Source: a virus (taxonomy: Duplodnaviria > Heunggongvirae > Uroviricota > Caudoviricetes). From it: a DNA stretch of 5,090 nt. The stretch lies in IMG/VR virus record IMGVR_UViG_2698536348_000006, positions 1 to 5,090 of that record; one strand, 5' to 3'. Of the stretch, positions 2,862 to 5,090 are shown in pieces. Below the pieces are notes generated by a model that saw only the letters and a program-made list of their open reading frames with translations, was not told the origin of the DNA and searched no databases. The position numbers and the translations under genes are program-made. Positions within the stretch are counted from its first letter, which is position 1. The number at the start of each line of letters is the position of its first letter.

Positions 2862-2924
2862 ATAAGCACGCCGGAGGGGGAGACTGGTGTATTCCCCGGT
2901 CTACCATATCGCCATTCAGAATGA
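2790..2924 (+). pseudogene. K: Truncated tail assembly protein K stub (about 31 native codons, then unrelated sequence to a stop)
   Basis: ATG 2790 follows the L stop by 10 nt, as for copies at 4085 and 4680. First codons MTQTESAILAHARRCAPAESCGFVISTPEGE match the lambda gpK N-terminus; homology ends near 2882 and the frame stops at TGA 2922-2924 (44 codons). The JAMM HSHPGG motif present in the other K copies is absent. Confidence 0.7.
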
Positions 2925-3042
2925 CGGGACTAATGGCCAGATAGGGCCGGAGGCGGCAGGCAGCCTTGTGCAACTGATTGACCAGCGGGTGCAGGCGGTG
3001 ATGCTGTCCATGCGACGTGACGGAGGAATACTGAGTGGCTGA
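2884..3042 (+). pseudogene. 3' remnant of a second, divergent tape-measure (gpH-like) gene with no start
   Basis: Frame 1 translation ...HIAIQNDGTNGQIGPEAAGSLVQLIDQRVQAVMLSMRRDGGILSG* ending at TGA 3040-3042 parallels the C-terminus of H1 (HVVIQNDGTNGQAGP...RDGGVFSGGRR*) but is clearly a different allele. It is in a different frame from the K stub, has no upstream ORF, and is followed directly by an M homolog as at the H1/M1 junction. Left boundary approximate. Confidence 0.6.
3022..3027 (+). promoter_or_regulatory. Shine-Dalgarno-like GGAGGA upstream of M2 start
   Basis: GGAGGA at 3022-3027, 7 nt before GTG at 3035; located in the 3' end of the tape-measure remnant, mirroring the H1/M1 arrangement. 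Confidence 0.4.
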
Positions 3043-3376
3043 GATAAAAACGCTGCATCTGGTCCCGCGTGAAGGGATGCAGGTGAGTGAGAAGCCGTCG
3101 GTGGTGAGGGTGCGGTTTGGTGACGGTTATGAACAGCGCCGCCCCACAGGGCTGAATCCTCAACTGAAGACGTTTCAGGCGGTGTTCCGGGTGACGGATG
3201 AGTCAACCCGGCGCTGGCTGGAAGAGTTTTTATCGTGGCATGGTGGTTACCGTGCCTTTTTGTGGCGACCGCCGAAACATAACCGGACGGTGAGGGTTGT
3301 GTGCCGTGAGTGGAGTGTCACGGATAATGCCCGGTACAGTGATTTCAGTTGCACGATAGAGCAGGTGGTGAACTGA
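3035..3376 (+). CDS. M: Phage minor tail protein M homolog, divergent allele (113 aa if GTG start)
   Basis: ORF in frame 2 ending TGA 3374-3376, overlapping the L2 start. Shares gpM core motifs with M1 (PSV.RVRFGDGY.QR, HGG..AFLW.PP, ..QVVN C-terminus) but roughly half the residues differ. Start uncertain: GTG 3035 has an SD at proper spacing; in-frame ATG at 3077 is the alternative. Confidence 0.75.
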   Translation: MAEIKTLHLVPREGMQVSEKPSVVRVRFGDGYEQRRPTGLNPQLKTFQAVFRVTDESTRRWLEEFLSWHGGYRAFLWRPPKHNRTVRVVCREWSVTDNARYSDFSCTIEQVVN

Positions 3377-4074
3377 TGCAGGATATTCACGAAGAAAGCC
3401 TGAACGAGTCGGTTAAATCAGAGCAGTCACCGCGGGTGGTACTCTGGGAAATCGACCTGACGGTACAGGGCGGTGAGCGGTATTTTTTCTGCAATGAGCT
3501 GAATGAAAAAGGGGAGCCGGTGACCTGGCAGGGGCGGAAGTACCAGGCATACCCGATTGACGGCAGTGGCTTTGAGATGAACGGGAAGGGCAGCAGTGCC
3601 AGACCGTCGCTGACGGTGTCCAATCTGTTTGGTCTGGTCACCGGGATGGCGGAGGACCTGCAGAGCCTGGTGGGGGCCACGGTGGTCCGCCGCCGGGTGT
3701 ATGCCCGTTTTCTGGATGCGGTGAATTTTGTGGCGGGCAATCCGGAAGCGGACCCGGAGCAGGAGCTGAGCGACCGCTGGGTGGTGGAGCAGATGTCAGA
3801 GCTGACGGCCATGACAGCCTCGTTTGTGCTGGCAACACCGACGGAGACGGACGGGGCGCTGTTTCCTGGTCGCATCATGCTGGCGAACACCTGTATGTGG
3901 GATTACCGGGGAGATGAATGCGGGTATAACGGTCCTGCGGTGGCGGATGAGTTCGACAACCCCACCACGGATATCCGTAAGGACAGATGCAGCAAGTGCA
4001 TGCGCGGGTGTGAGATGCGCGGCATGGTGGCTAATTTTGGCGGTTTCCTTTCCATTAATAAACTTTCGCAGTAA
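3376..4074 (+). CDS. L: Phage minor tail protein L, second copy (232 aa)
   Basis: ATG 3376 overlaps the M2 stop (TGATG) exactly as at 2079-2083; same 699-nt length as L1. Protein differs from L1 at only a few residues (REYQ/RKYQ, CMWTYRSDECGYTGG/CMWDYRGDECGYNGP, DKP/DNP). The track's 3349 start is an upstream in-frame ATG and probably not the real start. Stop TAA 4072-4074. Confidence 0.85.
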   Translation: MQDIHEESLNESVKSEQSPRVVLWEIDLTVQGGERYFFCNELNEKGEPVTWQGRKYQAYPIDGSGFEMNGKGSSARPSLTVSNLFGLVTGMAEDLQSLVGATVVRRRVYARFLDAVNFVAGNPEADPEQELSDRWVVEQMSELTAMTASFVLATPTETDGALFPGRIMLANTCMWDYRGDECGYNGPAVADEFDNPTTDIRKDRCSKCMRGCEMRGMVANFGGFLSINKLSQ

Positions 4075-4156
4075 ATCCCGGTTTATGACACAGACTGAAT
4101 CAGCGATTCTGGCGCATGCCCGGCGGTGTGCGCCTGCGGAGTCGTGCGGCTTCGTG
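3970..4156 (+). repeat. 187-bp L-3'end / K-5'start junction unit, copy 2
   Basis: Identical to 2675-2861 (offset 1295) and 4565-4751 (offset 595). Confidence 0.85.
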
Positions 4157-4669
4157 GTGAGAACGCCGGAGGGGGAGCGGTATATCCCTTGTGTGAATAT
4201 TTCCGCAGAGCCGGAGGCGTATTTTCGTATTGCGCCGGAAGACTGGCTGCAGGCACAGATGCAGGGGGAGATTGTGGCACTGGTCCACAGTCATCCCGGT
4301 GGTCTGCCCTGGCTGAGCGAGGCCGACCGGCGGCTGCAGATAAAAAGTGCACTGTCCTGGTGGCTGGTCTGCCGGGGGGACATTCATAAATTCCGCTGTG
4401 TGCCACATCTGACAGGACGGCGCTTTGAGCACGGGGTGACGGACTGTTACACGCTGTTCCGGGATGCCTACCATCTGGCGGGAATTGATATGCCGGATTT
4501 TGAGCGTGAGGATGACTGGTGGCGCAACGGTCAGAACCTTTACCTGGACAATATGGCGGTCACAGATATCCGTAAGGACAGATGCAGCAAGTGCATGCGC
4601 GGGTGTGAGATGCGCGGCATGGTGGCTAATTTTGGCGGTTTCCTTTCCATTAATAAACTTTCGCAGTAA
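4085..4669 (+). CDS. K: Chimeric tail assembly protein K: K N-terminal ~160 aa (JAMM/MPN domain) fused in frame to the last ~35 aa of L
   Basis: ATG 4085, 10 nt after the L2 stop. Residues 1 to ~160 (MTQTESAILAHARRCAPAESCGFVVRTPEGERYIPCVNI...VHSHPGGLPWLSEADRR...DCYTLFRDAYHLAGIDMPDFEREDDWWRNGQNLYLDNMA) follow lambda gpK. From ~4565 the DNA is identical to the L 3' end, giving C-terminus ...TDIRKDRCSKCMRGCEMRGMVANFGGFLSINKLSQ* (TAA 4667-4669). The C-terminal part of gpK is missing. Appears as the tail of track ORF 3824..4669. Confidence 0.6.
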   Translation: MTQTESAILAHARRCAPAESCGFVVRTPEGERYIPCVNISAEPEAYFRIAPEDWLQAQMQGEIVALVHSHPGGLPWLSEADRRLQIKSALSWWLVCRGDIHKFRCVPHLTGRRFEHGVTDCYTLFRDAYHLAGIDMPDFEREDDWWRNGQNLYLDNMAVTDIRKDRCSKCMRGCEMRGMVANFGGFLSINKLSQ

Positions 4670-4751
4670 ATCCCGGTTTATGACACAGACTGAATCAGCG
4701 ATTCTGGCGCATGCCCGGCGGTGTGCGCCTGCGGAGTCGTGCGGCTTCGTG
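4565..4751 (+). repeat. 187-bp L-3'end / K-5'start junction unit, copy 3 (L part follows K codons, not an L gene)
   Basis: Identical to the other two copies; here the L-derived portion is fused downstream of K codon ~160 rather than ending a full L gene. Identity with copy 1 continues to 4772 (= 2882). Confidence 0.85.
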
Positions 4752-5090
4752 ATAAGCACGCCGGAGGGGGAGTGGTATATCCCTTGTGTGAATATTTCTG
4801 CAGAGCCGGAGGCGTATTTTCGTATCGCACCGGAAGACTGGCTGCAGGCACAGATGCAGGGGGAGATTGTGGCACTGGTCCACAGTCATCCCGGTGGGCT
4901 GCCCTGGCTGAGCGAGGCTGACCGGCGGCTGCAGATAAAAAGCGCACTGCCCTGGTGGCTGGTCTGCCGGGGTGACATTCACAAATTCCGCTGCGTGCCG
5001 CACCTGACGGGACGGCGCTTTGAGCACGGGGTGACGGACTGTTACACCCTGTTCCGGGATGCCTACCATCTGGCGGGGATAACGCTGCCG
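4680..5090 (+). CDS. K: Tail assembly protein K (lambda gpK-like), 3'-truncated by window edge
   Basis: ATG 4680, 10 nt after the preceding stop; frame open to the window end (137 codons). Translation MTQTESAILAHARRCAPAESCGFVISTPEGEWYIPCVNISAEPEAYF...VHSHPGGLPWLSEADRR...GVTDCYTLFRDAYHLAGITLP matches the gpK N-terminus; about 95% nt identical to 4085-4560 with mostly synonymous changes. Confidence 0.85.
   Translation, partial: MTQTESAILAHARRCAPAESCGFVISTPEGEWYIPCVNISAEPEAYFRIAPEDWLQAQMQGEIVALVHSHPGGLPWLSEADRRLQIKSALPWWLVCRGDIHKFRCVPHLTGRRFEHGVTDCYTLFRDAYHLAGITLP

Follow-up and report, generated by a model that had tools for sequence, protein, structure and literature searches.

Organization of the window

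Can a single lambdoid tail operon carry two different alleles of the distal tail gene M? The question is raised by the stretch of DNA analysed here in full (5,090 nucleotides, hereafter the window), which bears lambdoid tail genes on its + strand and in which two divergent M genes, M1 and M2, are each followed by a copy of the gene L. The original prediction regarded M2 as a cassette swapped between near-identical flanks in a lambdoid module exchange, and asked which of the two M alleles, if either, is used.

The window is the entire contig CYDI01000111.1 (5,090 bp) of a draft E. coli assembly, GCA_001285245.1. It starts within the tape-measure gene H and ends within the gene K. The two samples listed for this contig are probably its GenBank and RefSeq copies, because the K::L fusion protein described below also carries a WP_ accession. 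The sequence is multi-copy: similar DNA occurs at a median of 2 and at up to 14 places per E. coli genome.

Comparison of the window with itself reveals three repeat relations: 2065-2896 with 3360-4188 (95.3% identity), 3966-4482 with 4561-5077 (96.3%) and 2671-2896 with 4561-4783 (97.8%). The window is therefore composed of three partial copies of one gene order and does not present two M genes in one locus. The copies correspond to three blocks: block A (1-2882, H-M1-L1-K'), block B (2884-4563, H'-stub-M2-L2-K') and block C (4565-5090, the end of L and then K). The third partial copy at 4565-5090 and the abrupt junction at 4563/4565 that introduces it had been overlooked in the original prediction. 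The features are distributed as follows.

1-1755, + strand: 3' part of H, lambda-like tape-measure allele, block A; the open reading frame spans 46-1755, and the called gene spans 1-1755, contains PF09718 (Tape_meas_lam_C) and runs off the contig start
1752-2081, + strand: M1, lambda-type gpM (distal tail protein), 109 aa; matches PF05939 and lambda gpM
2081-2779, + strand: L1, minor tail protein L, 232 aa; PF05100 at 305.8 bits
2675-2882, + strand: perfect direct repeat of 208 nt bracketing block B, second copy at 4565-4772, 100% identity
2790-2882, + strand: first 93 nt of K, end of block A, from base-by-base comparison with K and H' references; the frame then meets a stop at 2924
2883, no strand: junction 1, a single A, from base-by-base comparison
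2884-3042, + strand: last 159 nt of H', a second, divergent tape-measure allele, start of block B, from the match to intact H'-M-L contexts; 51-aa open reading frame at 2887-3042
3035-3376, + strand: M2, gpM allele of the second prophage type, 113 aa, GTG start; matches PF05939 and is annotated at the same length in an intact prophage
3360-3376, + strand: natural mosaic boundary, where homology to the M1 type resumes 17 nt before the M stop, from the self-comparison, 30-nt windows and intact prophages
3376-4074, + strand: L2, minor tail protein L, 232 aa; PF05100 at 308.6 bits
4085-4563, + strand: K2, first 479 nt of a K allele, end of block B, from base-by-base comparison
4085-4669, + strand: K::L fusion open reading frame, K2 reading into L at 4563
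4564, no strand: junction 2, a single A, from base-by-base comparison
4565-4669, + strand: last 105 nt of L, start of block C, identical to 2675-2779 by block comparison and in frame with K2
4680-5090, + strand: K3, first 411 nt of K, continuing the K of block A and truncated by the contig end; intact prophages match at 99.4% identity

The first 208 nt of block C (4565-4772) repeat the final 208 nt of block A at 100% identity, including three SNPs in K that differ in block B. Since C agrees with A at the SNPs that distinguish B, blocks A and C belong to one prophage with the normal order H-M1-L1-K. Blocks A and B differ at 36 of the 818 positions of their aligned L-K part (4.4%), and their H and M regions are unalignable. 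With A and B 4.4% apart and C equal to A, the copies are not the product of a fresh duplication in situ. A genuine tandem duplication would start from near-identical copies and leave one type of junction; here the third copy equals A and not B, and the two junctions are different. Taken separately, every block is collinear with intact prophages: block A aligns to them in one piece at 97.4% identity, block B is contiguous with intact H'-M-L-K at 98.6%, and block C is collinear at 99.4%.

M1 and M2 are both proteins of the gpM family

The Pfam profile PF05939 (Phage_min_tail, gathering cut-off 39 bits) matches M1 at 130.6 bits over positions 1-108 of its 108, and M2 at 101.9 bits over positions 2-108. 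Lambda gpM (PDB 8iyk_M) is matched with E-values of 2.4e-55 by M1, which aligns to it end to end (109 aa each), and of 1.5e-25 by M2, over residues 5-113. In a global alignment the two proteins are identical in 51 of 113 columns (45%), M2 being longer by four N-terminal residues (113 against 109 aa). The divergence at roughly half of the residues, the additional four amino acids and the retained family identity of M2 were thus all correctly foreseen, and M2 is, by these sequence matches, a true gpM homologue. As in lambda, M follows the tape-measure gene and precedes L, with overlaps between stop and start codons, both in the window and in intact prophages carrying either allele. Unlike lambda gpM, M2 is only about 45% like the M1 allele, and the prophages that carry it have head and tail-shaft genes that are not lambda-like.

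Each allele is widespread. A search of about 15 billion proteins places the exact M1 protein and the exact M2 protein on at least 1000 contigs each. Within the phage collection, lambda, 434 and many Stx2a phages are of the M1 type, and phage 1717 and many Stx1a/Stx2c-converting phages are of the M2 type. The Stx2-converting phage 1717 (NC_011357.1) and related Stx1a/Stx2c-converting phages encode a minor tail protein 98-99% identical to M2, in the same position after a long tape-measure gene; in E. coli prophages it carries the RefSeq accession WP_000807964.1. The tape-measure gene preceding M in these prophages is of full length (3,243 nt in the reference prophage), in contrast to the last 159 nt found in the window.

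At the DNA level, the segment from H' to M2 (2884-3380) is 99.8% identical to sequences present in 1,260 of the 5,426 complete E. coli genomes, always in the context H, M, L. The 3' end of H' and M2 are linked: all 1,266 matching records cover at least 80% of 2880-3380. The M2 allele is a genuine, very common and already known one, and comes from another E. coli prophage type. Regions of the M1 and M2 types also occur as separate prophages on one and the same complete chromosome; in NZ_CP027544.1, for instance, they lie at 926-930 kb and at 985 kb. As a separate observation, the M2 protein matches 350 places in 344 records of the phage collection, which leaves about six records with two gpM-like matches; these may be phages with a real second M, concatenated records or hits split in two.

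The identity step at the M/L boundary

Between L1 and L2 there are 6 differences in 232 residues (97% identity) and 33 in 699 nucleotides (95%), in line with the identity of about 95% originally reported. In 30-nt windows the identity amounts to 36-73%, on the whole about 50%, over the 3' end of H and M, and rises to 96-100% from 2065/3360 onwards. The step is situated 17 nt before the M stop and the M/L overlap. An identity plot had been proposed as a check, with uniform divergence across M and L as the unfavourable outcome; the step found is sharp.

The near-identical flanks ascribed to M2 exist only on its right side. The left flank (2884-3034) is as divergent as M itself and represents the 3' end of a different tape-measure allele, beyond which lies a junction without homology to a K gene cut at nucleotide 93. 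Upstream of M1 there is nothing equivalent to this K junction.

Most of the differences between L1 and L2 fall within about 60 nt (2606-2665 against 3901-3960; amino acids 176-195), where identity in 30-nt windows drops to 60-76%. This variable stretch forms a small mosaic patch within the C-terminal iron-binding domain of gpL, beside the cysteines of the motif CMW.YR..ECGY.

M is exchanged with the head and tail-shaft genes in intact prophages

Lambdoid phages are mosaic, and comparative genomics has established that their modules meet in sharp boundaries at gene junctions. We compared two reference prophages, NZ_CP071711.1 of the M2 type and NZ_CP193495.1 of the M1 type. In the former, the capsid gene measures 1,938 nt and the tape-measure gene 3,243 nt, and there are a protein of the HK97-gp10 family and a tail completion protein of the gp17 type. 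The latter is lambda-like, with terminase, portal, S49 protease, decoration, capsid, FI, U, G and T genes and a 2,580-nt H. Between the two, no DNA homology was detected along a span of about 14.3 kb that comprises the small terminase, the head genes, the tail tube, the chaperones, the tape measure and M. The lysis genes are common to both, and homology returns 17 nt before the M stop, with L-K-I-J at 95-98% identity.

The abrupt step at the gene boundary is thus reproduced in independent genomes, at the same coordinate in NZ_CP071711.1 and NZ_CP193495.1 as in the window. A single-gene cassette would have homology on both sides; to the left of M, homology is missing through H and about 11 kb further upstream. 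With some 14.3 kb lacking homology upstream, M marks the end of a morphogenesis module and is not a single-gene cassette. The unit exchanged is accordingly the whole head and tail-shaft module, from terminase to M, with M as its last gene. In this respect the window resembles known lambdoid mosaicism, as the change from unalignable DNA to 95-98% identity at M/L recurs between two intact prophages, and it differs from the exchange of a single-gene cassette in that the exchanged block is about 14 kb long. Of the proposed lambdoid exchange, the sharp mosaic boundary at M/L stands, being the same in intact prophages, and the part that made M the swapped cassette finds no support, as about 14.3 kb differs and H' and M2 are linked.

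Lambda gpM forms a hexameric ring whose beta-sandwich face docks the gpV tube and whose E-loops rest on the gpL/gpJ ring (PMC10721106). The boundary is placed such that M always travels with the tube and the tape measure and L-K-I-J are common to both types, which fits the position of gpM as the adaptor ring between tube and hub; M would thus remain with the tube to which it has to fit.

Both reference prophages display features of their own. In NZ_CP193495.1 (L005, 22446-26568) sodC is located between the tail genes I and J, and J is cut by an IS3 element. In NZ_CP071711.1 (L004, 13449-16033) the portal gene is annotated as frameshifted, so the prophage may be defective.

The two junctions are joined without homology

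At junction 1, K ends at 2882 (...GGAGGGGGAG) and H' begins at 2884 (CTGGTGTATTCC...). The base between them, A at 2883, matches neither K, which has C or T, nor H', which has T, and the homology at the join is at most 1 nt. At junction 2, the last base of K is 4563 (...GCGGTCAC) and L is taken up again at 4565 (GATATCCGTAAGG...), with the three nucleotides CAC in common. The base at 4564 is again an A, in contrast to C in K and G in L, and is preceded by the 3-nt microhomology CAC. With homology of at most 1 nt at one join and 3 nt at the other, homologous recombination is ruled out. The presence of a single A at both joins could reflect the filling of a one-base gap in a scaffold or an untemplated base, or could be coincidental.

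Two further routes to such joins were considered and rejected. A path of a de Bruijn graph through a shared k-mer is ruled out by the shortness of the common sequence, 3 nt at most. Exchange between prophages by unequal crossing-over or gene conversion is at odds with junctions at non-homologous positions and with sequence that is duplicated and not replaced.

Both junctions appear to be confined to this contig. The 101-mer across junction 1 is covered by none of the 5,426 complete E. coli genomes. For junction 2, the two halves of the 101-mer occur only in reversed order, about 595 nt from each other, in the complete E. coli genomes among the matches listed. The exact junction sequences, a 27-mer for junction 1 and a 29-mer for junction 2, are absent from IMG/VR, from the GTDB genomes (one per species) and from JGI metagenomes. 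In every E. coli and phage match listed, the window as a whole falls on one H-M-L-K copy, about 3,265 bp long. The proteins created by the junctions are equally isolated: the 51-aa H' open reading frame CTX03491.1 ('tape measure protein') and the K::L fusion CTX03548.1 each come from exactly one contig in the set of about 15 billion proteins. The fusion, K(1-160)::L(196-232), is named 'C40 family peptidase' (CTX03548.1 / WP_114052205.1); a Pfam search recovers from it Prok-JAB and the last 40 aa of Phage_tail_L only, with no C40 domain. The K::L fusion protein is a probable database artefact.

The claim of two M alleles in one locus rests on these two junctions, found nowhere else and lying in a draft contig that is multi-copy throughout, and it is not upheld. 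Most probably, the question of which M is used does not arise.

The ends of the blocks

Block A ends one base before a C/T difference between K copies. At that position (4773, codon 32 of K3) TGG (Trp) is found, against CGG (Arg) in K2 and in the reference K genes. K2 stops at codon 160, and the 160-aa 'partial' K of two other, unrelated draft assemblies ends at the same residue. The clusters of H' and K proteins are rich in partial proteins cut by contig ends.

We searched among H' alleles for a natural homology boundary at the left end of block B and found none: 1,251 full-length records align straight through. A contig break at the left end of block B could be explained only by SNP-level branching among multiple H' copies. 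In one complete genome (NZ_AP043639.1, 1360382-1360624), only M and the last part of H' remain, next to a major capsid gene; the arrangement has the appearance of a true internal deletion within a decayed prophage.

Discussion

Contigs of two resident prophages probably placed in series

When overlapping, near-identical repeat contigs are concatenated without being merged, false duplications arise in draft assemblies, and these form a known class of misassembly. Frequent misassemblies have been documented in real short-read E. coli contigs (PMC4889084). We consider it most likely that the window is not one genetic locus and that the assembler concatenated unmerged paralogous contigs of two resident lambdoid prophages. 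Blocks A and C would belong to one lambda-like prophage (H-M1-L1-K), with an identical overlap of 208 bases, and block B would be a 1.68-kb part of a second one, of the Stx-phage-1717 / CP-933X kind (the end of H', M2, L2 and K). The L-K DNA being about 95% identical, read pairs or a reference layout may have placed all three contigs at one position. The contigs would then have been written in series rather than merged, with a one-base spacer, now an A, at each join. The true neighbours of block B would be a contig ending in H' at ...AACGGCAGTGCGGGT and a contig beginning at nucleotide 480 of the K2 allele of K. That the joins were made by software and not by the cell is most likely, and it is with the same reservation that we assign them to this step of the software.

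The circumstances agree with such an origin: the contig is short, from a draft, multi-copy throughout and has both ends in repeats, and its blocks are collinear with intact prophages and share the 208-nt overlap between A and C. We favour it because the block ends look like contig ends (the SNP in K, codon 160 and the clusters of cut H' and K proteins), because C restarts inside A as an overlapping neighbour contig would, and because the copies are different alleles, the junctions are unique and M1-type and M2-type prophages coexist separately. The window resembles known false duplications in that its blocks overlap in the canonical order, its joins are without homology, the contig consists entirely of repeats and the third block restarts 208 nt back; it differs from them in having a single A at each join and no run of N. 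Several points weigh against concatenation. The spacer base A is predicted by neither parent sequence, a boundary at the level of the module is absent at the left end of block B, and the uniqueness of the junctions is equally expected of a rare real event. Moreover, a replicative template switch leaves the same signature, an insertion copied from a template, with a short duplication beside it and 0-3 nt of microhomology.

If the contig were correct, such a switch of the FoSTeS/MMBIR-like type would have led from nucleotide 93 of K in a prophage X to a position 159 nt before the end of H' in a prophage Y, with 1.68 kb copied there (M2, L2 and nucleotides 1-479 of K) and a return to X 208 nt upstream of the point of exit. 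The resulting tail operon would contain two M-L pairs, a fused K::L reading frame and an intact K. The structure of the window is exactly that of a templated insertion flanked by a 208-nt duplication, with 0-3 nt of microhomology and one untemplated base per junction; the essential genes survive (H, M1, L1 and K are intact as far as the contig runs), and donor and recipient prophage types coexist in single genomes. We nevertheless hold this event to be unlikely, as it requires two illegitimate switches within 1.7 kb and is represented by a single 5-kb draft contig in a comparison that took in 5,426 complete genomes and about 15 billion proteins. A random switch also has no reason to break at the sites where assemblies break (the SNP in K and codon 160 of K). 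Both ends of the contig lie within multi-copy repeat, of which it is made up entirely, and the identical odd base at both joins suggests a systematic process. Were the switch real, the operon would encode two incompatible distal-tail proteins, one suited to the lambda-type tube and one to a different tube, along with two L proteins and a fusion of JAB to the C-terminus of L, with every essential gene kept.

An artefact of another kind is less probable still. In library preparation, A-tailed fragment ends could give a single extra A. Chimeric library fragments or PCR chimeras bridging dead-end tips of the assembly graph, represented by a few chimeric reads and involving no scaffolding, would account for joins lacking the shared k-mer that a de Bruijn path needs, and the extra A could stem from such A-tailed ends. 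The ends of chimeric fragments are, however, expected to be random, and those seen here fall at copy-specific SNPs and recurrent contig ends, with C overlapping A as precisely as neighbouring contigs do. Scarcely credible, finally, is a true M-L tandem duplication in one locus followed by replacement of M alone through homologous recombination in conserved flanks, which would agree with the sharp identity step at M/L and the roughly 95% identity of L downstream, but for which there is no conserved left flank, as the 3' end of H' is as divergent as M; the K fragment further left is joined without homology, intact prophages differ over about 14.3 kb and not over one gene, L1 and L2 likewise represent distinct alleles, their differences clustered in a mosaic patch, and the third partial copy and the second junction are left unaccounted for.

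Significance of the contig

The M alleles, the gene order and the mosaic boundary at M/L are ordinary features of E. coli lambdoid prophages, and the biological value of the window is small. In practice, screens of draft assemblies will pick up 'duplicated, divergent' genes in short contigs made up entirely of repeats, and checking whether the junctions occur elsewhere quickly removes such cases. The probable artefact has now entered protein databases in the form of real proteins, CTX03548.1 / WP_114052205.1 and CTX03491.1.

The window also contains long open reading frames on the opposite strand. One of 410 aa (754-1986, - strand) lies opposite H and M1, and others of 100-220 aa extend antisense across L and K. 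All of these face well-supported genes, in DNA that is GC-rich, and are in all likelihood spurious.
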